From the IMG/VR virus record IMGVR_UViG_3300002461_000491, positions 1-44,664 of that record: 44,664 bases of DNA; one strand, given 5' to 3'. Below are positions 18,734 through 41,525 of this stretch, piece after piece. This DNA comes from a virus. Each line of letters opens with the position of its first letter. The stretch's first letter is position 1. Made by a program: the position numbers and the translations under genes. The notes under the pieces are model-generated. The model saw nothing but the letters and a program-made list of their open reading frames with translations. It was not told the origin of the DNA and searched no databases.

Positions 18734-19012
18734 CTAAGGGCGCTGGTCTGCGGTCTGCACAGTGTCAGCGTAGGCGCTGTCCTGCTGGTCCCACCAGCTG
18801 GCTGGCATGGGCTGGGCTTCAGCCACGTTCTGCCAGCGCCGGCCATCCCACAGGGTCAGCACGCGCCCGCCGTCACCCAGCACGCGCCACACGGCGCCGG
18901 TGGCATGGGCCAGCATGGTGGCGGCCTGTTGCACGCGCTGCGCATCGCCCAAAGGGTAAGCGGTGCCCACACTGCGCCAGCCGCTGGTGGTGTAGTGCTG
19001 CAGGATCAGCAT
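18734..19012 (-). CDS. Hypothetical protein translationally coupled to the integrase (92 aa)
   Basis: Its ATG at 19012 overlaps the integrase stop (ATGCTGA). Composition is plausible, with no recognisable motif. Confidence 0.45.
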   Translation of the reverse strand: MLILQHYTTSGWRSVGTAYPLGDAQRVQQAATMLAHATGAVWRVLGDGGRVLTLWDGRRWQNVAEAQPMPASWWDQQDSAYADTVQTADQRP

Positions 19013-20034
19013 GCGGCTGCCTGGTCAGACATCGGCACACGCTTCCAGTCGTTGCGCGACAAGCCCCGGTCATTGAGGTAGATCTCGGTAATCTCGATGT
19101 CGCTGTGGCCCAGCAGGGTCTGCAACACCTTGCGGTCCAGGCCCTGGGCCTCGTAAGTGCGGGCAGCAAGCGACCGGGTTTCATGCAAGCTGGGCCGCTT
19201 GTGCGTGCCGGGGTCCTTGTCTCCCAGCACGGCCTTGATGTGCTGGCAGAACCTGGCCGACAGGCTGCTGATCTCAATCGGCCGGCCGCTGGCTTGGCGC
19301 AACAGCGTGGGCCCTGGCTTGGCCGACTGGCGGCAGTGCTCGATCACGTCACCCACCGTCATGCCGATGCAGTCCATGCGCAGCGTCAGCGGGATCTCTA
19401 CTCGGGCGCCGTAGCCCTTGCCGGCTTCCTTCTGTTGCTCGATGCGCAGGTGCCCGTCCACCACATCGTCGAACCGCACCTTGCCCAGGTCGGCGCGGCG
19501 CTGGCCGATGGCCAAGCCCAGCAGCAGCATCGACTCGACCCAGCGCTGCGGGCAGGCCTGGGCCAGCGTGCGCATTTGCATCCAGACCTCGAGCTCCAGC
19601 CGCTCGCGCATCACCTTGTGCTTTGGCGGCTTGATGTCGCGCGCCGGGTTTGTCTCGGCCCAGCCGTTGGCGATCGCCTCGACGTAGGCGTCGCGCAGCT
19701 CGGACAGCACGCGCACCGCCGTGCTGCTCTTCTCCTTTGGGAATGTGCGCAGCGCGCTGGCCACCGCGTGTGGCTTCAGCTCGGCGATCGGCACCGTGCC
19801 CCACAGCCGCCGGACATGCGCCAGGTTGCTGCGGCGGTTCTTGATCGTCTGGGCCTTGTAGCCCCGGGTCAGCAGGATGCCGTCGTGCATGTCCAGCCAG
19901 TCGGCCAGTGTGCGGGCCGCTGCGATCGGCTGCGCTGTCGGCACAGCCGCAGGTGCGGGCAGGCCACCAGCCGGCAGCATGCGCAGGGCCTGCGCCATCA
20001 TTTCCAGCATGCCGGCCAGGTCGGCCGGAGTCAT
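19006..20034 (-). CDS. int: Tyrosine integrase, lambda/phage-integrase family
   Basis: 342 aa carrying the catalytic signatures GQRRADL (Arg), HETRSLAAR (HxxR) and LLGHSDIEITEIYL (His...Tyr). Confidence 0.85.
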   Translation of the reverse strand: MTPADLAGMLEMMAQALRMLPAGGLPAPAAVPTAQPIAAARTLADWLDMHDGILLTRGYKAQTIKNRRSNLAHVRRLWGTVPIAELKPHAVASALRTFPKEKSSTAVRVLSELRDAYVEAIANGWAETNPARDIKPPKHKVMRERLELEVWMQMRTLAQACPQRWVESMLLLGLAIGQRRADLGKVRFDDVVDGHLRIEQQKEAGKGYGARVEIPLTLRMDCIGMTVGDVIEHCRQSAKPGPTLLRQASGRPIEISSLSARFCQHIKAVLGDKDPGTHKRPSLHETRSLAARTYEAQGLDRKVLQTLLGHSDIEITEIYLNDRGLSRNDWKRVPMSDQAAAC

Positions 20035-20055
20035 GCTGATTCTCGGGTTGGTTCC

Positions 20056-20084
20056 ATCCTTTTATTGAATCACCGCAAAAGGAT
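20056..20084. promoter_or_regulatory. Inverted repeat in the AT-rich int / small-gene divergent region
   Basis: ATCCTTTT (20056-20063) and AAAAGGAT (20077-20084) form a perfect 8-bp inverted repeat with a 13-nt spacer. It abuts a TTGACA hexamer at 20085-20090. Confidence 0.45.
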
Positions 20085-20114
20085 TTGACAACCCCCGATT
20101 TGCGTGATGCAACA

Positions 20115-20306
20115 ATGAATGACATGAACAGCGAACCAAAAAGCAAACGCGGGCGGCCCTTCAAGTCAGACGAACAGAGGCTGGTGCAACGCTCAATCAG
20201 GCTGCTGCCGTCACAGTGGGCCAAGTACGACGCGGCGGGAGGCATCGAATGGCTTCGCGGGCTGATCGATCGCTCGAAGCCGAAGACGCCGCCGGACAAG
20301 GGTTGA
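20115..20306 (+). CDS. Small basic DNA-binding-like protein (63 aa), candidate excisionase/regulator
   Basis: ATG at 20115 (MNDMNSEPKSKRGRPFKSDEQRLVQRSIRLLPSQWAKYDAAGGIEWLRGLIDRS). The track start at 20085 is a TTG that coincides with the TTGACA hexamer. It is divergent from int. No family was recognised. Confidence 0.4.
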   Translation: MNDMNSEPKSKRGRPFKSDEQRLVQRSIRLLPSQWAKYDAAGGIEWLRGLIDRSKPKTPPDKG

Positions 20307-20337
20307 AGCACTCCGGGTGCACCTATGGGGGCTTGGA

Positions 20338-20544
20338 TCAGGCTTCGGCCGGTTCGCGGTAGCCGACAGGCATGGTGTAGTGCCGCGCCAAACTGTCGTG
20401 CTGGCAGTCTTTGCCGATGCCGTAGCACAGCCAGCACTGCGAGCCGCTGCAGGCGGTGCAGCCATCCTGATTTGCGGGCGACCACTCGCACCCGCCGTAG
20501 ATCAGGCCGGGCTCATAGCCGGTCAGGTTGCTGAGGCTGTTCAT
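20338..20544 (-). CDS. Cysteine-rich small protein (68 aa, 6 Cys)
   Basis: ATG at 20544 gives MNSLSNLTGYEPGLIYGGCEWSPANQDGCTACSGSQCWLCYGIGKDCQHDSLARHYTMPVGYREPAEA. The Cys spacing is C-x9-C-x2-C-x4-C-x2-C-x6-C. It starts 27 nt after the upstream stop. Confidence 0.5.
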   Translation of the reverse strand: MNSLSNLTGYEPGLIYGGCEWSPANQDGCTACSGSQCWLCYGIGKDCQHDSLARHYTMPVGYREPAEA

Positions 20545-20570
20545 GTCGGGTGTCACCTCTGGGGATGGGG

Positions 20571-21062
20571 TCAGCCGGCCGGGTGCTTCACCGGCAGCGC
20601 GGCCAGTCGCCTGTACTTCTCGGGCGTGTCGTGGCCGTCCCACTTGCCGGTGTAGGCCGGCAGGTCGGCGAACAGGTACGCCTGCGAGTCGTGGAAGTGC
20701 CAGGACGCCTGCCCGGTCGGCAAGTCGATGTAGACGCAGCCGTGCCAGTCTTCCGACCACCCCTCGATGGCCGTCCGCGCCACGCCTGACGGGTACGCCT
20801 TCGCCAGCGCGGCCACCACCTGGTTGCGTTCGAGGTAGGCCGCATCCTTGCGGGCCTCCATGTCCTTCAGCGCGTCACCGCCTGGCGTCGGGTACAGGTC
20901 GGCGTGCAGCACGTCAGATCCGCAGCCACGGCAGCGCCACAGCGAGCGCTTGCCGCCGCGCTGGTTGATTTCGTCGCCGTGGATGTTGCGCACGAAGTCG
21001 AACTCCAGGTGCTGGCAGAGCAGGCGGCGGATGAAGGTCAGGAGGGCCATAGGCAAGTGCAC
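20571..21062 (-). CDS. Conserved phage protein with ASWH...WDGH C-terminal motif
   Basis: 159-163 aa (GTG at 21062 or ATG at 21050). The sequence includes WRCRGCGSDV, then TGQASWHFHDSQAYLFADLPAYTGKWDGHDTPEKYRRL. I recall a phage WDGH-motif domain family, but this is unverified. Confidence 0.5.
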   Translation of the reverse strand: MHLPMALLTFIRRLLCQHLEFDFVRNIHGDEINQRGGKRSLWRCRGCGSDVLHADLYPTPGGDALKDMEARKDAAYLERNQVVAALAKAYPSGVARTAIEGWSEDWHGCVYIDLPTGQASWHFHDSQAYLFADLPAYTGKWDGHDTPEKYRRLAALPVKHPAG

Positions 21063-21077
21063 CGGCAGGGGATGGGA

Positions 21078-23834
21078 TCAGACCTCGATCAGCCAGAAAT
21101 AGCTGTTCTCGTCGGCTGTGCGCACCGTGCAGACAAAGCCGGTGGCATCGGTCAGCAGGGAGCGCGGCGCAGCGCGCTTGACCCCAGCACGGTTCAGCGC
21201 CGAGACACGCGGGCGGCCCTTGGCTGTCTGCACAACCTTGAGCGTGGCCGCCACGTCGCTGGCCTGGATGGGGTAATCGCCACCTCCGCCCGCCGCGATG
21301 GTCTTGCGCGTGGCGTCGGTGAACGCCATGCCGGTGTTCTGGCTGTCGCCGGCCAGCCCAATCAGCAGCTTGCGCGACAGGCCGATGTCCAGTCCATCCA
21401 GGCTGGTGACGAACATCGATGCATCGGTGGTCAGCGCGTCGATACGCACATTGCCGAACGTCACCGGCAGCGAGGCCCCGACGTGGCTGAAAAACACCGT
21501 GCGGGCGGTGTTGATCCAGGTTTGCTTAGTGCGCCGCGACCAGCCCCATTGCAGGTTGCCGGCCACCACCACGTTGGCGCCCTCGGACCAAGTGCCTGCC
21601 GAAAGTGCGCCGCTAGCCGCGGCAAAGCTCGCGCTTGTGATCTGCACGAAGTCGCCGGTGCCCTTGGTGATCGTCAGCGGCCCGTTGCGCAGTCCGGTGC
21701 CCGGCCAAGTGCCCGAAGCCCCTGTGATGTTGGAAATGAAGATCACGTCGCCAGTCACCAGCGTGTTGCCGGTGAGCGTGAGCACCGGCGACCCTTGGGT
21801 GGCGGTGAGACCGCCCACAGTGCCGGTGAAGGCGATGGCCGCGATATTGCCGCTGTTGGCTGTCACGCTCACCAGCGTTGGGTGATCTGCCGCGATGGCG
21901 CCGGCTGCCTGCGCTTCACTGGCAAGCGTGGAGAGCTGCTTCGGATTCCAAGTTGCAGCCAGCGCGTCGTCGGTGGTGTCATCGGTCCAATCGACGCCCG
22001 CACGGCGCAGAGCCGCGATGAAGTAAAGCGGCTGCAACAGCGTGAACATTGAGCGCGCCGGCCGCGCCGTGTTCACCGGATTGGTGCCGTAGTGCCGCTC
22101 GTTCAGCAGAATCTGCTGGCGCTTGGTGACGTCCATCGGCGACACATCGCCCCGCAGCATCAGCGCGGCCAGCATCACCCGCACGAAATCGTTGGTGACG
22201 TTGCCGGGGCAGTGGTACGGCTCGATGCGGCGCAGCCGGTTGCCGTGCGTGGTCGTGTCGTTGAAGTAGTCAAGCGCAAAGACGTCACCCTGGGCAAAGT
22301 GGGTCATGTACTGGCTGTCGTGGGTGCGCGTCACTGCCGCCATCACCGGGAACTGCGCCATGTACTTGCACCAGGCCGGCCACCCGTACTCGGCAGCGAC
22401 GAAGGGTTTGTTGTTGTTCAGCAGCGACGGCATCAGCATCGCGTTTTCGTAGTCCCAGATGGGCGAATTCCCCTGTGGGGCCAGCATGGTGCTGCCGTCT
22501 GCAATGCCGTTGTTGATCACGGTGCTGTAAGCGTGCGGCGCGTAGACCTGATTGATCGGGTACTTGCCGTAGCCTCGGCCCTCCAGCAGCGTGTGATAAA
22601 TCTCCGACCACCAGGTGATGCCGGGGAATCCCAGCGCAGTGATCTGTGCACTGAAGAAAGCGGCGAGGTCATCCTCCAGGTACTGCGCGTACTTGACCGC
22701 ATCGACGGCCTGGCGCGTGGACGGAAAGCTGGTGTTGAACGGGGGAACCGTCACCGCAGCAGCGACAGCAAACGATGCGTGAGCGCTGCCCCAGGCAGTA
22801 TTGAGGGCGGCCAAGTTCGCGTAGCCGTGCGACTTGGCGGAATCGCTCAGCCACTCCACCCAGGTCTGCGCCGCAGGCGTACTGCCGCCGGTGCGAGTCA
22901 GCCAGACTGAAGGGAACTGCACCTGGGCGCAGAACGTGGTGGACTGCTCGTTGAAGACCGACACCGCCAGCATGGCGGGGTCTTGCAACATGTTCAGCCC
23001 GGTGTAGGGGTTCACACGGTTCAGCAGCGCGCTGACGCCTGCGGTCCAGTTGGCGCGAATGTTTGCCTCGGTATACATGCGAGGCTTGGCGCTGCTGGCT
23101 TCGGTGTAGGTAAACCGGTTCGTTGCGCCGTCCATGTCCAAGAACAGGTTGTAGCTCTGGACGTTGAACACCCAAAAGATGCCCACTCGCTTCAGTTCGG
23201 ACAGGAAGAAGTCGAACAGGTCCAGCCGCGCAGGATTGAAGATGGCTGCGCCATCGATCCCAGCCATGAGCCAGTTTTCGACACCATGAATGCGCAGCCC
23301 GTTGTAACCCTGCCGGGCAAGGTTCTCGGCCGCAGCAGTCACCGCTGCGCGGTCGCTCGGGATTGGCGCGAAGGTGGTGTCGGGCGCCCAGGATGCGACG
23401 TTGAAACGCACCTCGACGCCAGCCTCATGCAGCTTGGTGCCGCTGACGGTGACCCGGCCACGGCTTCCAGCTGGCGTGGCGGTGGTACGCCACGTTGACA
23501 GGTCCAGCGCCCCAAGGGGTGCAATGGCGAGGGATTCGTCCTCCAGCGGTAGCCGGGCATTGGCAAAAGTTGCGGGCGCCACCTGCTGAGAACGAATCCC
23601 ACCCTCTGACACCAGGGCTAGAGCTTGGGCGGCCTGGGCCTCAGGCATCAGCCCGTAGCGCTGACCATCCACCTCGATCACCGGGTCCTTGCCGGCCTCA
23701 TCGATGACAGTCAGCGCAGGGTTTCGCGGAAGCGCTGCGCCATCGTCGACGAAGACGCCATCCCCGGGCAGCACCATGCGGCCGTCGATCGGCCGTGGCC
23801 GGCTGGTGGTGTTGGCGACCCAGATCTTGCCCAT
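21078..23834 (-). CDS. Large clan GH-A (GH5-like) glycoside hydrolase-like protein, candidate polysaccharide depolymerase
   Basis: ATG at 23834 is preceded by AGGAG with a 5-nt spacer (the track start at 23867 is upstream of it). The sequence shows GYNGLRIHGVENW, LAVSVFNEQS (the Asn-Glu acid/base motif, Glu codon 22947-22949) and FVAAEYGW (candidate nucleophile Glu, codon 22389-22391). A beta-rich tail of about 350 aa follows. GC3 is lower than in the core genes. Confidence 0.55.
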   Translation of the reverse strand: MGKIWVANTTSRPRPIDGRMVLPGDGVFVDDGAALPRNPALTVIDEAGKDPVIEVDGQRYGLMPEAQAAQALALVSEGGIRSQQVAPATFANARLPLEDESLAIAPLGALDLSTWRTTATPAGSRGRVTVSGTKLHEAGVEVRFNVASWAPDTTFAPIPSDRAAVTAAAENLARQGYNGLRIHGVENWLMAGIDGAAIFNPARLDLFDFFLSELKRVGIFWVFNVQSYNLFLDMDGATNRFTYTEASSAKPRMYTEANIRANWTAGVSALLNRVNPYTGLNMLQDPAMLAVSVFNEQSTTFCAQVQFPSVWLTRTGGSTPAAQTWVEWLSDSAKSHGYANLAALNTAWGSAHASFAVAAAVTVPPFNTSFPSTRQAVDAVKYAQYLEDDLAAFFSAQITALGFPGITWWSEIYHTLLEGRGYGKYPINQVYAPHAYSTVINNGIADGSTMLAPQGNSPIWDYENAMLMPSLLNNNKPFVAAEYGWPAWCKYMAQFPVMAAVTRTHDSQYMTHFAQGDVFALDYFNDTTTHGNRLRRIEPYHCPGNVTNDFVRVMLAALMLRGDVSPMDVTKRQQILLNERHYGTNPVNTARPARSMFTLLQPLYFIAALRRAGVDWTDDTTDDALAATWNPKQLSTLASEAQAAGAIAADHPTLVSVTANSGNIAAIAFTGTVGGLTATQGSPVLTLTGNTLVTGDVIFISNITGASGTWPGTGLRNGPLTITKGTGDFVQITSASFAAASGALSAGTWSEGANVVVAGNLQWGWSRRTKQTWINTARTVFFSHVGASLPVTFGNVRIDALTTDASMFVTSLDGLDIGLSRKLLIGLAGDSQNTGMAFTDATRKTIAAGGGGDYPIQASDVAATLKVVQTAKGRPRVSALNRAGVKRAAPRSLLTDATGFVCTVRTADENSYFWLIEV

Positions 23835-23841
23835 TGCGGCT

Positions 23842-23876
23842 CCTGAAACGCGGGCGAAGTCCCGCACGGTTTCAGG
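23842..23876 (-). promoter_or_regulatory. 5' leader stem-loop overlapping the glycosidase Shine-Dalgarno
   Basis: The mRNA reads CCUGAAAC-cgu-GCGGG-acuucg-CCCGC-GUUUCAGG-AGccgcaAUG. This is 13 bp of stem with a 3-nt bulge, and the 3' arm contains the first three bases of AGGAG. Confidence 0.5.
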
Positions 23877-23918
23877 ATTGGGCTTGTCCTCTCAGGACAT
23901 TTGCACCCCTGCGCGCAG

Positions 23919-25517
23919 TCACGCGGCCAAGCGCTGCAGCCTCAGCTCGACGGTTCGCAGCAAGCCCGGAACGGGGAGCCATCCATGCTTGCTACGAACC
24001 GAGGTCCCATCCATCTGGATGAGGCACTCGGGCTTGTAGCTCACCACCAGGTCGACGTCGTTGACCACGATGTGGTCGACGATGGTGGCAATGAATGCTC
24101 GCAGCGTCGGCAAGTCCTTGGCGCCTGTGATCGCCTGCCGCATCAGCGAGGCTGCCTCGTCAGCTGACACCCTCGCATCACCCACCACGGGCTCCTGCTC
24201 GTCTTCGATCGCCACCAGCGCATTCTCCAGCCGGCGGATCTGTGCGCTCAGTTCATTGACTCGCGTCATCGTGGGGGCCAAATCCGGGGTATCGCGGCCA
24301 GCGGCCTCCAGGATGTCGAACAGCTTGCCGCGGCGCTGCTCAGCGCTGCGCAGCTCGAGCACCATGGCCGTGCGCCGGCTCGCACGGTCCTTCACCCAGC
24401 GCGCCGCAGCCTCATCAAGGCCGTCCAACACGCGCTGGATGACATCCACGTTCAGCACCAGGTCGAGAAGGTCGGACAGCATGCGCTGGTCGAACGCATC
24501 GGCAGGTACAGGCTTGAACGCGCATGGCTGGCCTTGGTTGTGAGCACGGCAGGCGTAGTAGTGGTAGAGCCTGCCAGCTCGGCCCGTGCCATTGGTCATT
24601 TGCAGCGACGATCCGCAGTTTCCGCACTGCATCAACCCGGCAAACACGTGCTGAGCGGTGTGCGGCGGCCTGCCCTTGCCCGGAGTGCGCCCTGTCAGCG
24701 CCGATTGCACCTGGTTGAAGTCGTCGCCCGCCAGCAAAGGCGGGTGAGCCTGCACCCGGATCCACTGGTCTTCTGCCCGCTCGGCCTTGGTCTTGCGGTT
24801 GAACCTGTTGTAGATCACGCGTCCCATGTACACCTCGTTCTTCAGCAGGTAGAGCACGCTGTTCTTGCTCCATTTCTTGCCACGCATAGTCACGCCCTGA
24901 CCGTTCAGGCCCAGCGCGATGCCATATGCCCCTTGCCCCTCCAGCGACTGCCGGAAGATCATCCGCACGATCTCGGCCTCATGGCCCAGCGGCACCAGCC
25001 GATGGCGCCGCCCATCATCAGCCTGCACAGCCTGGTAGCCAAAGGGCACCCTGCCGCCCATGAAGTACCCCTCGCGGGCCGCCTTGATCATGCTGCGCTT
25101 GGTGTCGGCCGAAACCTGGCGTGAATAGCCCTCGTCCATCACCTGCTGGATGCTGTCGAGCATCCAGCCTTCCATGGTCTCCAGGTCCAAGCTGGAGTGG
25201 GCATAGACCAGCTTGGTGCGGTGGCTGGCCAGCTCGCGCTTGTAGGTAATGGCGTCGTGCTGGTCGCGTGCAAACCGACTGCTGCTCCAGCACACCATGA
25301 AGTTAATGTCGCCGGCGCTGCAGCGGTTGATGGCAGCCCGGAAGCCCGGCCGGGCGTCGGTGGTGCCGCTGATGCCGTCGTCACGATAGACCTGCAGCAC
25401 CACCGCGCCGAGCTCGGCGGCCTTGTGCTGGCAGGCGTCAATCTGGCTGTCGATCGAAAGCCCCTCTTCGGCCTGGCGCTCAGTGCTCACGCGGGCGTAC
25501 ACGATCGCTCGCTTCAT
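23919..25517 (-). CDS. Large serine recombinase (phage serine-integrase type)
   Basis: ATG at 25517 gives MKRAIVYARVSTERQ (catalytic Ser motif), a resolvase domain, a recombinase domain, a zinc ribbon (CGNCGSSL...YYACRAH) and a C-terminal coiled-coil region. About 532 aa. Confidence 0.85.
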   Translation of the reverse strand: MKRAIVYARVSTERQAEEGLSIDSQIDACQHKAAELGAVVLQVYRDDGISGTTDARPGFRAAINRCSAGDINFMVCWSSSRFARDQHDAITYKRELASHRTKLVYAHSSLDLETMEGWMLDSIQQVMDEGYSRQVSADTKRSMIKAAREGYFMGGRVPFGYQAVQADDGRRHRLVPLGHEAEIVRMIFRQSLEGQGAYGIALGLNGQGVTMRGKKWSKNSVLYLLKNEVYMGRVIYNRFNRKTKAERAEDQWIRVQAHPPLLAGDDFNQVQSALTGRTPGKGRPPHTAQHVFAGLMQCGNCGSSLQMTNGTGRAGRLYHYYACRAHNQGQPCAFKPVPADAFDQRMLSDLLDLVLNVDVIQRVLDGLDEAAARWVKDRASRRTAMVLELRSAEQRRGKLFDILEAAGRDTPDLAPTMTRVNELSAQIRRLENALVAIEDEQEPVVGDARVSADEAASLMRQAITGAKDLPTLRAFIATIVDHIVVNDVDLVVSYKPECLIQMDGTSVRSKHGWLPVPGLLRTVELRLQRLAA

Positions 25518-25584
25518 TCCACCCACCTTATCGCCAAGCCCTGGCGCGCGCCAATGAATCGGCCGCCGGTTTCAATCAATGCAG

Positions 25585-26133
25585 TCATCCAGCCGCCCTG
25601 GCCCGACCGGCTGCAGCCAACCGCTTGATGTGCCGGTAGCTGAGCTTTTCCCCCAGGTCCTTGTGCACCATCGCGTGGATGTCGCTGGGCTTGATGCCGG
25701 CCTGCACCAGGGTGGCGATGTACCGATTTCGCTGATACCGCTCGAAGGCTCGGAAGGGCCGCAGGCGCAGCTCGATCTGGTCGTCATCGTTGCGCAAGGC
25801 CGGGTCGGCGGAAAGCAGGCGCCACATGGCCACAAACTGCTCATAGCCCAGCAGCTGCGCCACAGACAGCCACGTGGCCGACAGGCCGATTTCGGCCAAT
25901 TCGCGCAGACGCACGTCGGCGCGAAGTTCTGAAGCAGTGCATCCGTTCAGGTACCCACCTCCCCACGGACGCACCGCCATGGTGCGCTGCCGAGCCCCCA
26001 CCCCCTTTGCACCAATGCTGTGCGTTGCGCCATTTCGGTGCGTATTGGGGGGGATCAGCTCAGGGAACAGGTCCTGGTTGATGTCTGCGCTGGATCCACT
26101 GCGCGATTCAGCAGGCATGGCCGCTCCTCGCAC
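25585..26133 (-). CDS. Mor/C-like transcriptional regulator candidate (C-terminal HTH)
   Basis: 177-182 aa. ELAEIGLSATWLSVAQLLGYEQFVAMW...RPFRAFERYQRNRYIATLVQAGIKPSDIHAMVHKDLGEKLSYRHIKRL follows the layout of Mu Mor-family activators. The start is uncertain (26133 or 26118). Confidence 0.35.
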   Translation of the reverse strand: MRGAAMPAESRSGSSADINQDLFPELIPPNTHRNGATHSIGAKGVGARQRTMAVRPWGGGYLNGCTASELRADVRLRELAEIGLSATWLSVAQLLGYEQFVAMWRLLSADPALRNDDDQIELRLRPFRAFERYQRNRYIATLVQAGIKPSDIHAMVHKDLGEKLSYRHIKRLAAAGRARAAG

Positions 26134-26269
26134 CAGGTGCAGCAGGCCCGATCACTGCGTGATCTGACAGCAGGCGCAGTGCACCCTCCCGGTGCAATTT
26201 GTGTTGCCTAGATGAGTTAGCCCGGGTTGTAACAGAGTTTGGGAGTTGCTCGGAATCGTCCTGCGACAT
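26108..26269 (-). CDS. Possible small ORF (53 aa) overlapping the Mor-like gene start
   Basis: ATG at 26269 is preceded by AAGGAA with a 6-nt spacer (MSQDDSEQLPNSVTTRANSS...). It is in a different frame from 25585..26133. It could be a separate gene or a sign of a frame error. Confidence 0.3.
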   Translation of the reverse strand: MSQDDSEQLPNSVTTRANSSRQHKLHREGALRLLSDHAVIGPAAPGARSGHAC

Positions 26270-26365
26270 CGATGTTTCCTTGGTGTGCGTGAACGGAGCC
26301 CAGCACCGCTCTAGGGGTTGTGTGGCCGGCCGGGTTGCGGATGCATCCATGGATCGACCCCTGGC

Positions 26366-27373
26366 CTATAGGCGCTTGAGCACTTCGCTGACGGGGCTGG
26401 TCATCTTCGACAGCGGCCCGCTGGCGTCGAGCACCTTGGTCTTGCGGCGCATGCTCATGGCCGTGTAGATGGCTGTGCTCTTGGGGTCGACGTGGCCCAG
26501 CAGCTCCTGCCGGGTGATCAGGTCCACGTTGTCCTCGGCCAGCTCCACACCGAAAAGGTGGCGGAAGGCGTGCGGGTGCCGCTCATCGGCAGGCACCCCG
26601 GCCTTCTCGCCGTGGCGCTGGATGATCCGCCACACCGCTCCACGCGACAGGCGCACCGCCTCGCCTCGCCACAGGTGCGCGGGCACCCGGCTGTTGACGG
26701 TCTGCACGAACAGCACCTTGTCCGGGCGCCCATGCTTGTCCAGGATGTCGCGGTCGTAGGCCTTCAGGCCCTCGTGGTCCAGGTAGATGCGCAGCAGCAT
26801 CTCTGCCTCCCTAGGCACGGGCAGCATGCGCTCCTTCTCGCCCTTCTCGGTCACGCGGATCACCAGGCGCGTCTTGCCGTCGACGTCGCTGTTGCGCAGA
26901 TCTCCCTCATCCAGGCCTACCAGCCCGCCGACACGCAGGCCGCAGCCCAGCAGCAGCGACAGCAGTGCCGCATCTCGAATCCCGATGAACGTGTTGAGGT
27001 CAGGGGCCCACATCAGCTTTTCGGCGCTGGCCAGGCTCAGTGCCTGGGGCAGCGGCATGCCGGTCTTGGGGTGCTCCAGCTGGTGGGATGGGTCGTGCTC
27101 GATGTGGCCACGGCCGCGCGCCCAACCGTAGAACCCGCGCAGCGCGCTGATGTACGGCTTGCGACTGCGGGCCACCACGCCACGCTTGTGCAGCCAGATC
27201 CCGCTAAACGCCTCGAGCTCGACGGCCGTCGCCTGCACCAGGCTCTTCTCGCCGGCAAGAAACTCCTGCAGCCTGGCCAGGGCCATGCCGTAGCTCTCAA
27301 GCGTGCGCGGCCGCCGGCCGCGGCTGGTCTCCAGGTGCTGCAGGAAGCCGCGGATGGCTTCGTCGTCGGTCAT
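26366..27373 (-). CDS. Xer-type tyrosine recombinase (335 aa)
   Basis: ATG at 27373 gives MTDDEAIRGFLQHLETSRGRRPRTLESYGMALARLQEFL (SAM-like N-domain). The catalytic signatures are GCGLRVGGL (Arg), HAFRHLFG (HxxR) and LLGHVDPKSTAIYT (His...Tyr). The 70 upstream codons of the track ORF run through the repeat region and were rejected. Confidence 0.8.
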   Translation of the reverse strand: MTDDEAIRGFLQHLETSRGRRPRTLESYGMALARLQEFLAGEKSLVQATAVELEAFSGIWLHKRGVVARSRKPYISALRGFYGWARGRGHIEHDPSHQLEHPKTGMPLPQALSLASAEKLMWAPDLNTFIGIRDAALLSLLLGCGLRVGGLVGLDEGDLRNSDVDGKTRLVIRVTEKGEKERMLPVPREAEMLLRIYLDHEGLKAYDRDILDKHGRPDKVLFVQTVNSRVPAHLWRGEAVRLSRGAVWRIIQRHGEKAGVPADERHPHAFRHLFGVELAEDNVDLITRQELLGHVDPKSTAIYTAMSMRRKTKVLDASGPLSKMTSPVSEVLKRL

Positions 27374-27488
27374 CGTGGTCACAGGGTTCGGCCGGCTCGC
27401 TTGGGGGGACACAGGCATTCCACCAGTGGAAGCGTGGATCGGCAACACGTGGGGCGAAAAGCGCAATGCCGACAAGCACTTACCGCAA

Positions 27489-27781
27489 TGTGGCATCCAC
27501 GGAAAACCCGTGGATTGGCCCGCCGACCTGTGGTTACTTTTGCTTACCGTTTGTGCAACCTGTGGATGCAGCTCACTCGACACGCGGCCCTCTCTTTGCC
27601 TACTTTCCTTTTTGAATCAATGATTTAGAGAGAGAGAACAAGCGTGGGCAGCGGAATAGTCAATGTGGAGAAAAGCCGCCGACCTGTGGAAAAAATGGCC
27701 CAACCTGTGGAAGAACACTGCGCATTCCAAAGGGCTGTTTTGTTAGTAGATCAATGACTTACGGCATTTGTATCCACAGGT
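27489..27781. repeat. Noncoding array of ACCTGTGG / DnaA-box-like motifs (candidate origin, iteron set or att arm sites)
   Basis: CCGCCGACCTGTGG occurs at 27520-27533 and 27676-27689. CAACCTGTGGA occurs at 27556-27566 and 27701-27711. ATCAATGAyTTA occurs at 27616-27627 and 27750-27761. TATCCACAGGT (reverse orientation) is at 27771-27781. ATCCACGG aaaac CCGTGGAT is an inverted repeat at 27495-27515. An AT-rich stretch spans 27601-27640. Confidence 0.7.
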
Positions 27782-28101
27782 CCACGGGTTCTAGCGTGCG
27801 CCCCTGCCTTGCCATTCAAGAAAACAGCACGGTCGGCCCCCTGCCCTTCGGGTCTTCCCTGATCCAGGCCGGCAGGCTTCTGCGTGGTGGGGTGCGGGGA
27901 GCGGACGGCAGGCAACTGCCGCCGGCATCGTGTGCGGCGTGTGCCCGGGTAACCCGCGCTGGCGCTCTGGCCTGATGGCCAGATCGATCCAGGCGCGCCT
28001 AACGGCGCGCGGTCAATGGGGTGGTGGCCTGGCGGCCACCGGGCCTTGCAGGGCCGCCAACTGCGTCGGCGCCGTGCCTCGGCCGAACGGCCGCGTCGGC
28101 T

Positions 28102-29211
28102 TCAGATGCGGCCCTGGCGCGTCAGCCGCTGGCGCACGTCTGCCACCCGGCTGCGCACCATGCCGCGCGTCAGCAGGCCTTGGTCAAAGTAGGCCGCCTT
28201 GGTCGGGCCCAGCACGCCGGCGCGCAGCTCGGGCGCCAGCCTGGCCAGCGCCTGGTTGGTCGTCTCGATGCCGGCCCGGTCAGCGTCGGTCACCTCGTCC
28301 TCGAACACCGCCACCACAAAGCTCAAGGTGTTGGGGTGCGCTGGCCAGGGCGTGCGCTTGCGGTCGGGGTACACGCCAGCGCCCAGCCCGTGCAGGTTCT
28401 GGCGGGCCAGCAGGTCGCAGATGTCCGGGCGCGGGTGGCGCGGGCTCAGCAAGAACCGGAACCCCAGCACCGCACCAGACCTCTCGGCGCCGGCCATGTA
28501 CGCCTCGCCGTGGGCCCGGTTGATCTCTGTGCGCGCCACCCGCAGCGTGTTCGGCAGCGCGCCATTGTTCGGTTCCACGAGGTGGTCAGCACCGCGCAAC
28601 AGGTTGCCCACGGCTGATGCCTGCTGCGCTTGGGCGGTTGCCGCCGGCACCGCCTGCCCACGCAGCAGAAACTGCTGCGCCGCGGTGTCCGCGCTCCACC
28701 CCTGCACCACAGCCTGCTCCACCGTGCGGTGCACAGCCTCCCGGGCGCCACGGTCCACACGCCAAAGACGGTCACTCAGCACCAGGCCGTCGGCAGCCCT
28801 GAATGCCCGAACGAACTGCACCGCGTCGTCGACCAGGCGCAGCGCCTCGGCGCCGTCCAGCAGCGCCTCCACCTGGCGGCCGGTGGCCAGGATGCCGGCA
28901 GCCGTCAGCGGCCGCACGCCCAGCTCGGCCGCGCGCTCGATCGCGCCGTCCAGCAGCTGCGTGCGCAGGCTGGCCAGCGCGTCCAGCACCTGGTCGATGC
29001 GATCAAGCAACCCGCGCAGCTGGTCCAGCCGCACCTGCGCCCCACTGTCGGCCGCCTGGGCGATCGCCATGCGCACCTGCTCAGCCGCGTCTGAGTAGAT
29101 GCGCGTCAGCTCCGTCTCCGTCTCAGCATCCAGCTGCTGCATCTGGTTGCGCGCCTGCTGGCTGGCCCGGCGGATCGCCGCGCCCGTGCAGTCGGCCAGC
29201 AGCCGGGCCAT
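28102..29211 (-). CDS. Head morphogenesis protein, SPP1 gp7 / Mu F-like
   Basis: ATG at 29211 overlaps the portal stop (ATGA). 369 aa. VARTEINRAHGEAY matches the MuF-family signature. It is directly downstream of the portal gene. Confidence 0.7.
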   Translation of the reverse strand: MARLLADCTGAAIRRASQQARNQMQQLDAETETELTRIYSDAAEQVRMAIAQAADSGAQVRLDQLRGLLDRIDQVLDALASLRTQLLDGAIERAAELGVRPLTAAGILATGRQVEALLDGAEALRLVDDAVQFVRAFRAADGLVLSDRLWRVDRGAREAVHRTVEQAVVQGWSADTAAQQFLLRGQAVPAATAQAQQASAVGNLLRGADHLVEPNNGALPNTLRVARTEINRAHGEAYMAGAERSGAVLGFRFLLSPRHPRPDICDLLARQNLHGLGAGVYPDRKRTPWPAHPNTLSFVVAVFEDEVTDADRAGIETTNQALARLAPELRAGVLGPTKAAYFDQGLLTRGMVRSRVADVRQRLTRQGRI

Positions 29212-38159: not shown

Positions 38160-38419
38160 CAATGCACCTGCCCTGCAGCCATCACCGTCTCACCCATGCG
38201 GGCTTCCAGGTCGAAGGCCTGCAGCTCCAGAAGCAGCGCCTGCATCAGCACATGCGCCTCTTCGCCCTGCCCTGCCACCATGCGGCGGCAGGCAACCTGC
38301 TGGATCTCGAAGGCCAGCCACCCACCCGTCATAAAGCACCGGCGCACCAGCTCCCGCAGCTCGGGCGGTGCATCGGCCGGCAGCGCCGCGCGCTGCAGCA
38401 GGTCCAGGCCCTGCGCCAT
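38159..38419 (-). CDS. Hypothetical protein (86 aa)
   Basis: ATG at 38419 (MAQGLDLLQRAALPADAPPELRELVRRCFMTGGWLAFEIQQ...). The upstream 70 track codons are R/G-rich. Confidence 0.4.
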   Translation of the reverse strand: MAQGLDLLQRAALPADAPPELRELVRRCFMTGGWLAFEIQQVACRRMVAGQGEEAHVLMQALLLELQAFDLEARMGETVMAAGQVH

Positions 38420-38430
38420 CGTGGCGGCCT

Positions 38431-38721
38431 TCACCGCGCCACCCCGCCCATCAGGTTGCCCATCGCGTCGTCGATCGCCGCGCGCAGCGTGGTGCCGCTG
38501 CCCAGCACATCGCCGTCCATGTCGCGCAGCTCGAACAGGCTGGCCCCGCCGGGCTTGGCCTCCACCCATTCGTGCACCACCAGCTCGGCCTGCGCCTCCA
38601 TCCAGTTCAGCCGCGTGCTGTCGCGGCAAGCCTCGGCCCAGTCCGCCTGGCTCACCTCCGTGCGGCCTGCTGCAGCCACGGCCAGCGCCGCGGCTGGCGC
38701 CGGTTCAATCGTCATGCCCAT
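38431..38721 (-). CDS. Hypothetical protein (about 95 aa)
   Basis: ATG at 38721 or 38715, the latter overlapping the primase stop. MGMTIEPAPAAALAV...WMEAQAELVVHEWVEAKPGGASLFELRDMDGDVLGSG. Confidence 0.4.
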   Translation of the reverse strand: MGMTIEPAPAAALAVAAAGRTEVSQADWAEACRDSTRLNWMEAQAELVVHEWVEAKPGGASLFELRDMDGDVLGSGTTLRAAIDDAMGNLMGGVAR

Positions 38722-41525
38722 GTCTTGTCCTTGGTTTGGTGCGGCGCTTTCTCCACCGGGCGCGCCGCGCTCAGCCCGTATTGCTCCAGCGCAGGCAGGC
38801 TCAGGCCCACCATGTGCGCCACCCGCTTGCCGTTGCACGTGCGCTCGATGTCGTCCTCGGCCAGCACGTTGGCCTGCATCAGCGCCCGCTTGAACACCCG
38901 GTCGCTCTTCACCGGCAGCCCGTCCCAGAACTCCCGCAGGCTCTGCTCCCGGCTGATGTGGTCCATCACGTGGCTGGTGCGCACCGCCAGAAATGGCTCA
39001 CCGTCGGCCGTCTCGTCGAAGTCAAACGGGTAGCGGTAGGTGCCGCGCGAGATCTCGCTCAGCAGCGTGTCCACGATCCACACCCACGGCTGGCGGTCGC
39101 CCTTGCTGTCGGTGATGTGCGCGTTCATCTGCGCCGTCAGGTCCCGCAAGAACCCGCCCTGCGCCACGTCGATCTCGGCAAAGTCGCACAACAGCACCCA
39201 GGCCGCCCGCACCGCCGCATAGTTGCCCAGGATGCGCACCGCGCCGGCGTCGTCTTCCTTGCCGATGCAGCTGGCCTGCATCTCGGTGATGCAGCGCTCA
39301 TGCAGCGCCTGCACCCGCGCCTTGGGCAGCTCGGCCAGGTATTCCAGCCACTGCCGCACCGGGAACACCGGCAGGTCCTCCGGCATCAGTGGCCCGCGCA
39401 TCGCCTTGCTCAGGTGGTTGCGCACCACCTTGCCCTGCAGCGTGGCCACCGGCACGTCTTCACCCGCCAGCAGCACCGGCGCGCAGATCAGAAAGTCCTT
39501 CAGCTCAGCCCCGCGCCGCGTGTGGCTGTACTGGTAGGCCTCCTGCAGGTTGTGCAGCGCCTTGTTGATCAAGTCCTGCTTGTTCGCGCTCAGCTCGCCC
39601 CAGCCCACCGGGTGGCTGGTGTAGCTCAGGCTGGTCAGGATGCGGAACTCGGTCTGCATGCTCTGCCGGCTGAACACCGTCATGCCGATCGTGCGCTCCA
39701 GCCGCTTCAGCACCGTGTCCTTGCCTGTGCCCTTGTCGGCCTGCATCACAAAGTGCGGCCAGAAGCCCAGGAAGGCTTTCAGGTGCGCCCCCAACGCCCA
39801 CACCAGCTGCTGCAGCACCCCGTTCTCGGCAAACGTGGCCTGGTAGGCCGCAATCACCTGTGCGGCCGTGCTGCGCGCCCCACTGGGGAACGTCAGCGCG
39901 CTGTACGGGCACTGCTGCGCCGGATCGGTGAAGAAGCAGTCCGGCCCTTCGTTCACCACCGGCTTGCCCTGCCGCCAGGCCAGCCCCACAAAGTTCACCG
40001 CGTCACGCGCGCCGATGTCGGCCGCCCGCTCCATCACGTTGATCATCCGGCTGAAGTTCGCCGGGCTGAACACCGGCCCCAGCTTCTTCCAGTGCTCCAC
40101 GTTGTGCAGCTGCTCGTCGGCCACCACCTTGCGCAGCAGCCGGTGGCTGTAGCGCGGCACCTGCACGCTCACCGCAAAGATCGTGGCCGGGCTTGCGTCC
40201 TTGTCGCCCGTCATCGTGCTGGTCGGGCTGGCGATCGTCACCCGGCTGATGCCCGCCACGCGAAAGCCGCACACGTTGGTCAGCGTCAGCTTCTCTTTGC
40301 CGTCGTTGTCCTCGCTGGCCTCCTCGTACTTGTCCACGAAGCTGGTGAAGTCGGGCCGCGTGCGGAACCGCCAGTACACCTGCGTGTCATGGAACGGCAG
40401 CCACAGCCGCGGCTTGCCCCGGTGCGTCTTGCCCGGCATGCCCGGTATCAGCCAGGGCTCCAGCTTCTGCAGCGCCGTGGCCAGCCGCTCGGCGCCGTGG
40501 GCCTGCAGATAGTCGTTGATGTCCTTGATCGGCTCCTCAGCGTCGTCCAGCCAGTCTTCCATGTCCACCATCAGCGCCGGCACGTCCAGGCCCATCAGCG
40601 CCTCATGCGCAGCCCAGGCCGCCTGCATGCCAGCGCAGTAGCCCGCCTTGGGGCCATGCTCAATCGGCTTGTCGTTGTCGAACGCCAGCACCACCTGCTT
40701 GCCGATGAACAACCGCCAGTCCATCCCCGCCACACTGCCCGTGCCCCGGGTGGCCACCGCCGCAGTGCCCGGCATCGCGCAGGTGTCGATGCTCAGCGCG
40801 TTGGTCGCGCTCTCCACCACGTACACCCGGCGCGCGCTGGCAAAGCGGCGCCAGTCGCTGCACCACGGGGCGCCCACCTTCTCACCCTGGCTCTGCGTCT
40901 TCAGGCCGCCGTTCAGCGCCGGGTCGATGAAGCGCATGTCCACCGCCAGCACCTGGTGCGTGTCAGGCGTGCGCACGATGGTGGCCACCGCCGGCCCGCC
41001 GTGGTTGATCTCGCCGGGCGCGAACTTCGGGTTCACGTAGTCGTTCAGCCCCAGCGTGCCCCGGTCGATCGCGTGCGCCACCGCCTTCTCGCTGATGCCA
41101 CGGCCCGTCAGGTAGCCCACCACCTGGGCGCGCTTGCCCGGGTCGCGCACGTTGGCCAGGCAGTTGTCGGCAATCCACTCGGCGCGGGTTTTCTCGCGCC
41201 GCTCGGCCGGCTGGCCATGCTGGGCCGGCCGCTCCACGCTGATGCGGTACAGCTCTCCCAGCGCCTTGGCCGCGGTGATGAAGTCGCATCCCTGCACATG
41301 CATGTACAGGTCCACAGGGCCGCCGCCCAGGTCGGTGCTGAAGTCCTTGAAGTAGCTGCGCCCGTCCTTCTTGTAGCAGCTCAGGCTGGGCATCTTGTCC
41401 GCGTGGTGCGGGCTCTTGAAGTTGCCCCTGTCGCCAGGGCGCACCAGCCCCAGCTTGATGGCCAGATCCTCGCAATCCACCCGTGCGTTGATCTCGTCGG
41501 CCAGTGATGGTCTGTTGTTCGTCAT
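38712..41525 (-). CDS. DNA primase (toprim) / helicase-type replication protein, 937 aa
   Basis: The N-terminal primase-like region is followed by a toprim-like VYVVESATNALSIDTCAMPG...VVLAFDNDK. The C-terminal NTPase has a Walker A-like ADKGTGKDTVLKRL. It is the largest early gene. Confidence 0.7.
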   Translation of the reverse strand: MTNNRPSLADEINARVDCEDLAIKLGLVRPGDRGNFKSPHHADKMPSLSCYKKDGRSYFKDFSTDLGGGPVDLYMHVQGCDFITAAKALGELYRISVERPAQHGQPAERREKTRAEWIADNCLANVRDPGKRAQVVGYLTGRGISEKAVAHAIDRGTLGLNDYVNPKFAPGEINHGGPAVATIVRTPDTHQVLAVDMRFIDPALNGGLKTQSQGEKVGAPWCSDWRRFASARRVYVVESATNALSIDTCAMPGTAAVATRGTGSVAGMDWRLFIGKQVVLAFDNDKPIEHGPKAGYCAGMQAAWAAHEALMGLDVPALMVDMEDWLDDAEEPIKDINDYLQAHGAERLATALQKLEPWLIPGMPGKTHRGKPRLWLPFHDTQVYWRFRTRPDFTSFVDKYEEASEDNDGKEKLTLTNVCGFRVAGISRVTIASPTSTMTGDKDASPATIFAVSVQVPRYSHRLLRKVVADEQLHNVEHWKKLGPVFSPANFSRMINVMERAADIGARDAVNFVGLAWRQGKPVVNEGPDCFFTDPAQQCPYSALTFPSGARSTAAQVIAAYQATFAENGVLQQLVWALGAHLKAFLGFWPHFVMQADKGTGKDTVLKRLERTIGMTVFSRQSMQTEFRILTSLSYTSHPVGWGELSANKQDLINKALHNLQEAYQYSHTRRGAELKDFLICAPVLLAGEDVPVATLQGKVVRNHLSKAMRGPLMPEDLPVFPVRQWLEYLAELPKARVQALHERCITEMQASCIGKEDDAGAVRILGNYAAVRAAWVLLCDFAEIDVAQGGFLRDLTAQMNAHITDSKGDRQPWVWIVDTLLSEISRGTYRYPFDFDETADGEPFLAVRTSHVMDHISREQSLREFWDGLPVKSDRVFKRALMQANVLAEDDIERTCNGKRVAHMVGLSLPALEQYGLSAARPVEKAPHQTKDKTWA

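Follow-up and report, generated by a model that had tools for sequence, protein, structure and literature searches.

The alpha protein of phage P4 binds short octamer iterons, both direct and inverted; its helicase belongs to the SF3 class rather than being Cch/MCM-like, and P4 needs a distant second site, crr. Primase, helicase and a C-terminal origin-binding domain are said to be united in this one polypeptide, an account attributed to Ziegelin and Lanka in 1995. The Rep proteins of staphylococcal pathogenicity islands (SaPIs) load themselves as initiator-helicases and, through a C-terminal winged helix, read 6-12 iterons just downstream of rep; SaPI origins have an AT-rich centre with opposed iterons on either side, and SaPI5 carries a pri-rep fusion (PMC9371898). 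Origins of Gram-negative phage-inducible chromosomal islands (PICIs), with two iteron sets around an AT-rich region, work as replicons (PMC6092414). Here we examine a noncoding stretch between the genes for a MuF protein and a Xer-like tyrosine recombinase (Xer) in IMG/VR record IMGVR_UViG_3300002461_000491, a viral DNA of 44,664 nucleotides analysed over its full length (hereafter the window). From sequence comparison we propose, with a probability of about 0.8, that positions 27418-27901 are a phage replication origin of the 'primase / self-loading helicase / iteron origin' type, as in SaPIs and PICIs and, by analogy, P4. Its candidate initiator is Pri1, a primase encoded elsewhere in the window. 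The design is known already and entails no new principle; it had not been pointed out before in this phage group.

Repeat layout and its conservation in relatives

The window, a phage genome, has a GC content of about 68%, and almost every gene lies on its minus strand. Read from right to left, the genes are Pri1, large terminase, portal, MuF, the noncoding stretch, Xer, p182 and a large serine recombinase (LSR), followed past LSR by a 929-aa protein, a WDGH-domain protein, a second tyrosine integrase and a protease/capsid gene. The noncoding stretch lies between the MuF stop at 28102 and the Xer start at 27373. It holds no credible open reading frame, as a first-pass annotation made from the sequence had stated, and tRNA and Rfam scans found no tRNA and no Rfam family in the window. 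The sharp fall in GC content described in the same annotation holds for 27374-27800 (0.54, against ~0.68 for the window), as does the AT-rich stretch at 27601-27640 (0.30). It does not hold for 27801-28101, which is GC-rich (0.72), so the drop is limited to the Xer-proximal 430 bp.

One short word crowds this Xer-proximal part. The comparison of motif density that the first-pass annotation had proposed places GTGGA/TCCAC far above both shuffles and the window: there are 11 copies in the 427 bp of 27374-27800, against a shuffle mean of 0.89 (about 10-fold enrichment) and a maximum of 5, and the density is 25.8 per kb compared with 2.7 per kb in the window. The full iteron word of the window, ACCYGTGGAW, is about 10 bp long and occurs in about 12 copies. 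A centre at 27590-27638 divides them into seven towards Xer and five towards MuF, with both orientations on each side (Table 1). The word's shorter form CYGTGGAW has 11 matches in the 44.6 kb, 6 of which fall inside 290 bp of the noncoding stretch, and a word search found no second iteron cluster elsewhere in the window. Within the centre, 27615 is the sole perfect match in the whole window to WATCAANNNNTTR, which we take to be the consensus of integration host factor (IHF); the motif ATCAATGAyTTA of the first-pass annotation fits it.

The motif pairs that had drawn attention to the stretch are present where they were reported (CCGCCGACCTGTGG at 27520 and 27676, CAACCTGTGGA at 27556 and 27701, ATCAATGAYTTA at 27616 and 27750), and so are the reverse-oriented TATCCACAGGT at 27771 and the inverted repeat formed by ATCCACGG at 27495 and CCGTGGAT at 27508. 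They had been read as a decayed duplication of about 150 bp, an interpretation that did not survive local alignment: the two halves, compared with their motifs masked, score 6.0, where shuffles average 5.7 +/- 0.9. In relatives the same layout consists of binding sites that are each conserved on their own.

Relatives were defined as loci with Xer relatives at 42-79% identity, comprising 39 viral contigs and 20 bacterial-genome loci (numbered L001 onwards where needed); their hosts are mostly Burkholderiales, Roseateles and Pelomonas being closest. A fixed-offset layout is present in about 30 of the 39 viral loci and in most of the 20 bacterial-genome loci, with the motif AACCYGTGGAW at set offsets from the Xer start in most loci (Table 1). 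The inverted pair at about -140/-126 keeps a spacing of 13-15 bp, and the window's single sites at 27526-27535 and 27558-27567 are the counterparts of the relatives' sites at -160 and -192. Footprinting in the close clade (alignment A4) found the iteron cores invariant and the spacers variable, and the opposed pair 27772-27789 is invariant in alignments A1 and A4.

Parts of the arrangement extend to more distant phages, including the P2-like myoviruses KL3, phi52237, Menos and Ralstonia phage YO009_3. Microcystis phage vB_MaeS-yong1 (yong1) has the same cassette of Xer, a protein of ~180 aa and LSR, preceded by a like-arranged noncoding stretch. A centre of the type CT-tract / (A)TTCATTGA / GA-tract is found in yong1, KL3, phi52237, YO009_3 and a Photobacterium prophage. 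Inverted pairs made of other words occur in KL3, Menos and L067. The second IHF-like box of the window has counterparts in yong1 (GATCAATCACTTA), KL3 (AATCAACGACTTA and, as reverse complement, AATCAAAGACTTA) and YO009_3 (AATCAATGACTTA), and a terminator-like GC hairpin with T-run lies at the equivalent of 27810-27870 in KL3, L033 and L062. By blastn, the sole match of the region among phages is the Xer gene of yong1, and there was no match among plasmids. The first-pass annotation had suggested looking for the same repeats in related phages or plasmids; they recur in the former, and the latter gave no blastn match.

We also note that yong1 (L001; MT855965), a 'cyanophage' in GenBank, resembles Burkholderiales prophages at 36-55% amino-acid identity, having in common with them the primase, terminase, portal, MuF, capsid protease, recombinase cassette and origin architecture. 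Its host assignment to Microcystis may deserve a second look.

Repeat words, primase types and the candidate initiator

What the repeats follow is the primase. Distant relatives have the order Pri1, noncoding region, Xer, p182, LSR, p331 and TerL, and in most relatives the noncoding region starts directly at the Pri1 stop codon. A primase-seeded scan of viral contigs gave only 6 loci. The P2-like myoviruses carry a Pri1 homolog ~53% identical to the window Pri1, with a noncoding gap of ~200-850 bp between it and the next gene, and this gap has the same architecture: a C-rich box, IHF boxes, a CT-tract/ATTCATTGA/GA-tract centre, 21-bp phased iterons and an inverted pair. These phages have unrelated integrases and no Xer cassette; indeed, Pri1 is the sole protein common to the window and KL3 or YO009_3 in a genome-wide comparison. 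The word of YO009_3 is that of the window, and in both YO009_3 and KL3 the word clusters beside the primase gene alone. The comparison with P2-like phages thus argues, at the level of sequence, for Pri1 itself as the binder.

Other lineages use other words: GGGTGCAAG in L030, L032, L060 and L067, CATGGAT in Photobacterium, and GCCACGAGT in KL3, phi52237 and Menos. In all four GGGTGCAAG loci Pri1 is replaced by Pri2, a 1024-aa primase-type protein with a CHC2 zinc finger, Toprim and Walker A that has no detectable similarity to Pri1 (BLASTP E = 1.3). The Xer proteins of GGGTGCAAG loci are nevertheless 84-85% identical to those of GTGGA loci (L032/L065, L060/L027), and in such Xer-matched pairs the DNA becomes homologous no more than 4 bp from the Xer ATG and stays so across Xer, p182 and LSR. 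No Xer-linked conserved site was found upstream of the Xer ATG. Since closely similar Xer proteins, with homologous p182 and LSR, adjoin unrelated words, with the boundary at the Xer ATG, Xer, p182 and LSR are excluded as the binder, and this mosaic boundary assigns the whole noncoding region to the replication module. The Pri1 and Pri2 loci are a natural swap of origin and initiator between otherwise similar phages, and the comparison suggests that each iteron word is specific to its cognate initiator.

Pri2 itself (L067:6210-9284) has an origin of its own at L067:9400-10000, also present in L030, L032 and L060, in which 8-11 GGGTGCAAG copies are accompanied by a centre rich in A/T and by a GCGCCGAAGGCGC hairpin that is conserved.

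A further element shared across word classes is a C-rich, mirror-symmetric box (C-box). Most loci have about one copy, always on the same strand and about 515-545 bp upstream of Xer (for example at L041:6939, L042:6936 and L070:5148), in many cases directly behind the primase stop codon. It is invariant in 8/8 close relatives, occurs in Pri1-type loci that differ in word class (including KL3, phi52237, YO009_3 and the Photobacterium prophages) and is absent from 4/4 Pri2-type loci. It may serve priming or loading, act as a site for a regulator or belong to a terminator.

Searches of Pfam, NCBIfam and PDB by sequence and profile recognised in Pri1 the N-terminal DnaG-type primase alone, with a CHC2 zinc finger at residues 10-98, Toprim at 234-346 and profile matches to the DnaG primase 2AU3 and to TIGR01391. 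Its Walker A and B motifs do not vary across alignment A2, and the C-terminal part used alone as a query has >1,000 database homologs. This part (residues 351-937, 587 aa) was modelled with AlphaFold2 at a mean predicted local distance difference test score (pLDDT) of 69, the C-terminal ~230 residues being confident. The top Foldseek match of the model is 5DGK (SCCmec Cch; E = 1.2e-5, probability 1.0, full-length alignment), followed by the winged-helix DNA binders 5VFX and 1F4K, structures solved on DNA; the matching unit in Pri1 is a terminal helix-helix-helix with beta-hairpin. An independent HHpred note in the Menos record also names 5DGK. The model thus gives the C-terminal part of Pri1 the fold of a Cch/SaPI-Rep-like helicase bearing a winged helix, and we infer that Pri1 is the iteron-binding initiator.

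Under this scheme, Pri1 would bind the ~12 ACCYGTGGAW iterons on either side of 27590-27638, and host IHF would probably bend the DNA at the WATCAANNNNTTR boxes at 27615-27627 and 27749-27761. The AT-rich polypyrimidine/polypurine centre would then melt, whereupon Pri1 could load itself as a helicase and prime synthesis.

The locus offers a concrete candidate origin and initiator for a large family of Burkholderiales temperate phages and prophages, among them P2-like phages of Burkholderia and Ralstonia that are under study for therapy and biocontrol, for which we found no origin description in the literature searched. With at least three natural iteron-specificity classes and matched initiators, including a pair of initiators that are 76% identical and have different words, the family is a ready system for mapping how self-loading helicases read origins.

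Table 1. Elements of the proposed origin module, associated genes and the site layout of relatives (window positions unless marked as offsets from the Xer start)
Feature	Position	Strand	Sequence or remark
LSR, large serine recombinase	23919-25526
p182	25585-26133		182 aa, no family hits
Xer-like tyrosine recombinase	26366-27373	-	SAM_1 and catalytic domain; first gene of the Xer-p182-LSR cassette
Xer-proximal iteron cluster	27418-27439		Palindromic pair TTCCAC-CA-GTGGAA (27418-27427 -, 27422-27431 +)
Tandem iteron copy	27430-27439	+	AAGCGTGGAT; 8 bp on from the 27422-27431 site
Inverted iteron pair	27495-27515		ATCCACGG-AAAAC-CCGTGGAT; 27495-27504 (-), 27506-27515 (+)
Single iteron, variant	27526-27535	+	ACCTGTGGTT
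Single iteron	27558-27567	+	ACCTGTGGAT
AT-rich centre, predicted DNA-unwinding zone	27590-27638		Polypyrimidine tract 27590-27613
IHF-consensus box in AT-rich centre	27615-27627		AATCAATGATTTA
Polypurine tract in AT-rich centre	27628-27638		GAGAGAGAGAA
Phased array, GTGGA exactly 21 bp apart	27661-27712	+	CAATGTGGAG (27661-27670), ACCTGTGGAA (27682-27691), ACCTGTGGAA (27703-27712)
Second IHF-like box	27749-27761	+	GATCAATGACTTA; core match ATCAANNNNTTR
Opposed overlapping iterons, 8 bp apart	27772-27789	-	ACCTGTGGAT (27772-27781), ACCCGTGGAC (27780-27789)
GC stem region then T-run	27810-27870	-	…GGATCAGGGAAGACCCGAAGGGCAGGGGGCC…GTTTTCTTGAATGG; conserved block, alignment A1
C-box	27887-27901	-	CTCCCCGCACCCCAC; family consensus CCCCCGYACCCCC; outer edge of conserved origin module
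GC-rich 3' flank of MuF, short hairpins	27902-28101	-	Poorly conserved
Pri1	38712-41525	-	937 aa; DnaG-type primase; Cch/SaPI-Rep-like AAA+ helicase and C-terminal winged helix predicted from a moderate model
Layout in most relatives, Xer-proximal	-64/-56; -140/-126; -160, -192		Tandem pair 8 bp apart; inverted pair; singles
Layout in most relatives, Xer-distal	-337/-316/-295(/-274); -411/-403		Phased array of 3-4 copies, 21 bp; opposed pair

Other explanations for the region

Several observations weigh against an origin read by Pri1. The proposed origin of the window and its initiator gene are not neighbours, with 10.6 kb between the origin and the Pri1 stop. The interval 38190-38711 after that stop was checked as a second origin or crr and is coding, with no iterons. 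Separation by more than 10 kb, with the origin beside the Xer cassette, is found in the window lineage (the window, L002-L012, L050 and L051) and in yong1; in Photobacterium prophages the origin is beside Xer, with no Pri1 within the short flanks examined. Because the two are adjacent in most relatives, and likewise in KL3, phi52237, Menos and YO009_3, we regard the separation as a lineage-specific rearrangement. The module swapped between word classes also carries several small genes upstream of the primase, so a separate small origin-binding protein could account for the Pri1/Pri2 contrast. The primases of YO009_3 and KL3 are 76% identical and pair with different words, and their predicted winged helix (residues ~850-910) is not the most diverged part; that part is residues ~721-760, with 45-50% identity against 75-92% elsewhere. 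Only 2 word-class-specific columns occur in the Pri1 alignment, and parts of the ATPase core fall below pLDDT 50 in the model, which is of moderate quality. A sliding identity profile of the window Pri1 against same-word and different-word relatives gave no discrimination. Finally, the region always abuts Xer in the siphovirus group, so an added regulatory role for the Xer operon is possible.

Residues ~721-760 of Pri1 correspond to about 39246-39365 of the window (minus strand) and form helices just past the ATPase core in the model; they are a candidate specificity determinant.

A regulatory role could coexist with origin function. The stronger claim that the region is not an origin at all, being instead an array of operator or regulatory sites through which a replication-module regulator or Pri1 controls the Xer-p182-LSR operon, we consider unlikely. 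In its favour, the siphovirus group keeps the region at the Xer start in three contexts (after the primase, MuF or lysis genes), and the tandem iterons are only 45-65 bp from the Xer ATG. The P2-like phages, however, have the same architecture before unrelated xis/int genes or a hypothetical gene, and the mosaic boundary groups the whole region with the primase module rather than the Xer cassette. An AT-rich centre with phased iterons and IHF boxes is, moreover, an origin layout, and a consensus promoter and terminator scan of 27300-28200 found nothing, including no sigma-70-like promoter. A bolder extension of the origin reading, which we regard as speculative and would sooner doubt than accept, is that the origin is a portable cis-module coupled to the Xer-p182-LSR cassette, the two moving jointly between positions after the primase, MuF and lysis genes. 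The initiator, sitting on promoter-proximal iterons, would tie recombinase expression to replication, and the C-box CCCCCGYACCCCC would be a new cis-signal of the Pri-Rep family, such as one for primer start or loading, given its conservation across iteron-specificity classes.

The first-pass annotation had offered two possibilities, a DnaA-dependent or iteron-type origin and a phage attachment site (attP) with arm-type sites. Comparative sequence evidence supports the iteron-type origin and tells against the DnaA part, in which the TGTGGA-type sites would be boxes for host DnaA. The resemblance is real in number: within 427 bp, TTATCCACA is matched at >=7/9 positions by six sites, three of which reach 8/9, where shuffles average 0.96 sites at >=7/9 (P = 0.002). 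Yet the region has no perfect TTATCCACA box, and the relatives' commonest word, ACCCGTGGA, has C where a DnaA box needs T and does not keep the 3' TAA. The conserved 5' ACC flank of the iterons also lies outside any DnaA box, and the same geometry is kept with unrelated words (GGGTGCAAG, GCCACGAGT, CATGGAT) in whole lineages. A universal host protein cannot yield lineage-specific words that follow primase type; a DnaA-dependent origin is very unlikely, and the case illustrates how resemblance to DnaA boxes can mislead origin annotation. A plasmid-type partition (centromere) or incompatibility array, which the short phased direct and inverted repeats might also recall, barely merits consideration. 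No ParA, ParM or ParB-type gene was found beside the region, the relatives are integrated prophages, and an AT-rich centre linked to a primase-helicase suits an origin better.

Hardly more tenable is the attP reading, or any other recombination site for Xer or the LSR, even though the region adjoins two recombinase genes, the inverted pair 27495-27515 with its 6-8 bp gap resembles a tyrosine-recombinase core, and IHF boxes are known in attP sites too. In prophages within large chromosomal contigs the region is unsplit and the prophage ends just after LSR, where host genes begin (in a Paucimonas prophage, those for a Yip1-domain protein and an aminotransferase), whereas in free forms LSR is followed by p331 and TerL. 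Xer lacks an arm-binding domain, and the word is independent of it: 84-85% identical Xer proteins with homologous p182 and LSR adjoin wholly different words, inverted pair included. P2-like phages, for their part, have the architecture without Xer or LSR. Since prophages end after LSR while free forms run on into p331 and TerL, the integration site is placed downstream of LSR, which is likely the integrase. The Xer-p182-LSR cassette (23919-27373) is conserved in most relatives. Two narrower candidates, the repeats as Xer core and accessory sites and an invertible switch flanked by inverted AAAACCCGTGGA copies, were also rejected, since all ~50 loci have one orientation and the word does not follow Xer.

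Other features of the stretch stand apart from the proposed origin. The GC hairpins that had been noted after the MuF stop are present (27993-28010, 28023-28040 and 28080-28093), in a segment, 27902-28101, that probably lies outside the origin; folding of 27795-28105 is no better than shuffles (z = -1.4). Three close relatives keep the hairpin at 27993-28010, GCGCGCC-(4 nt)-GGCGCGC; in the minus-strand transcript its loops are of GNNA type (GUUA, GAUA, GUGA), and it probably functions at an mRNA 3' end. The close clade also conserves a block at 27471-27482 (plus strand GACAAGCACTTA; TAAGTGCTTGTC on the minus strand), which lies between the Xer-proximal tandem pair and the inverted iteron pair and might contribute to the Xer promoter or serve as a site for a different protein. 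On a larger scale, the head-morphogenesis module includes a segment of ~9 kb (19006-28101) that separates MuF from the protease/capsid gene. This segment holds the proposed origin, three recombinases, the 929-aa protein without hits (21078-23867) and the WDGH-domain protein (20571-21062). Because yong1 has a DDE transposase at the equivalent position, the place between MuF and protease/capsid suggests an insertion hot spot.

Comparison with known replication systems

Set against iteron plasmids and oriC-type origins (pSC101, RK2, P1 oriR), the locus has in common with them phased iterons of ~21-22 bp, an AT-rich region and an IHF site. It differs in that the window has no RepA/Rep_3-type initiator, and its resemblance to DnaA boxes is partial and unconserved. 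With P4 it would share a single primase-helicase polypeptide with an origin-binding end, and iterons in both orientations. It departs from P4 in that a crr-like second iteron cluster was not found in the window. No P4 alpha structure was among the sequence matches or the 50 Foldseek matches listed for Pri1, and P4 was not compared directly by sequence.

Closer parallels are found among the phage-inducible islands. The Gram-negative PICI EcCICFT073 has a fused Pri-Rep and an adjacent origin with two iteron sets flanking an AT-rich region, a likeness that lies in architecture; here the element is a phage with its own structural genes. The SaPIs differ more in setting, the present hosts being Gram-negative Burkholderiales and the element a full temperate phage and no satellite. 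No sequence similarity to Cch or Rep is detectable, the fold-level likeness coming from a moderate model. The window iterons are longer (~10 bp), and the module adds IHF-consensus boxes, a polypyrimidine/polypurine centre and the C-box. In most relatives the origin lies directly downstream of the primase, as it does of rep in SaPIs, the 10.6 kb in the window being a departure from this. In other respects the plan is that of SaPIs, including PriRep5 of SaPI5, and of SCCmec Cch: a primase with what is modelled as a self-loading AAA+ initiator-helicase bearing a winged helix. As in SaPIs, where there are 6-12 short iterons, the 12 of the window stand on both sides of an AT-rich centre, some of them opposed, and in both systems the iteron word appears specific to its cognate initiator, here as judged by sequence comparison.

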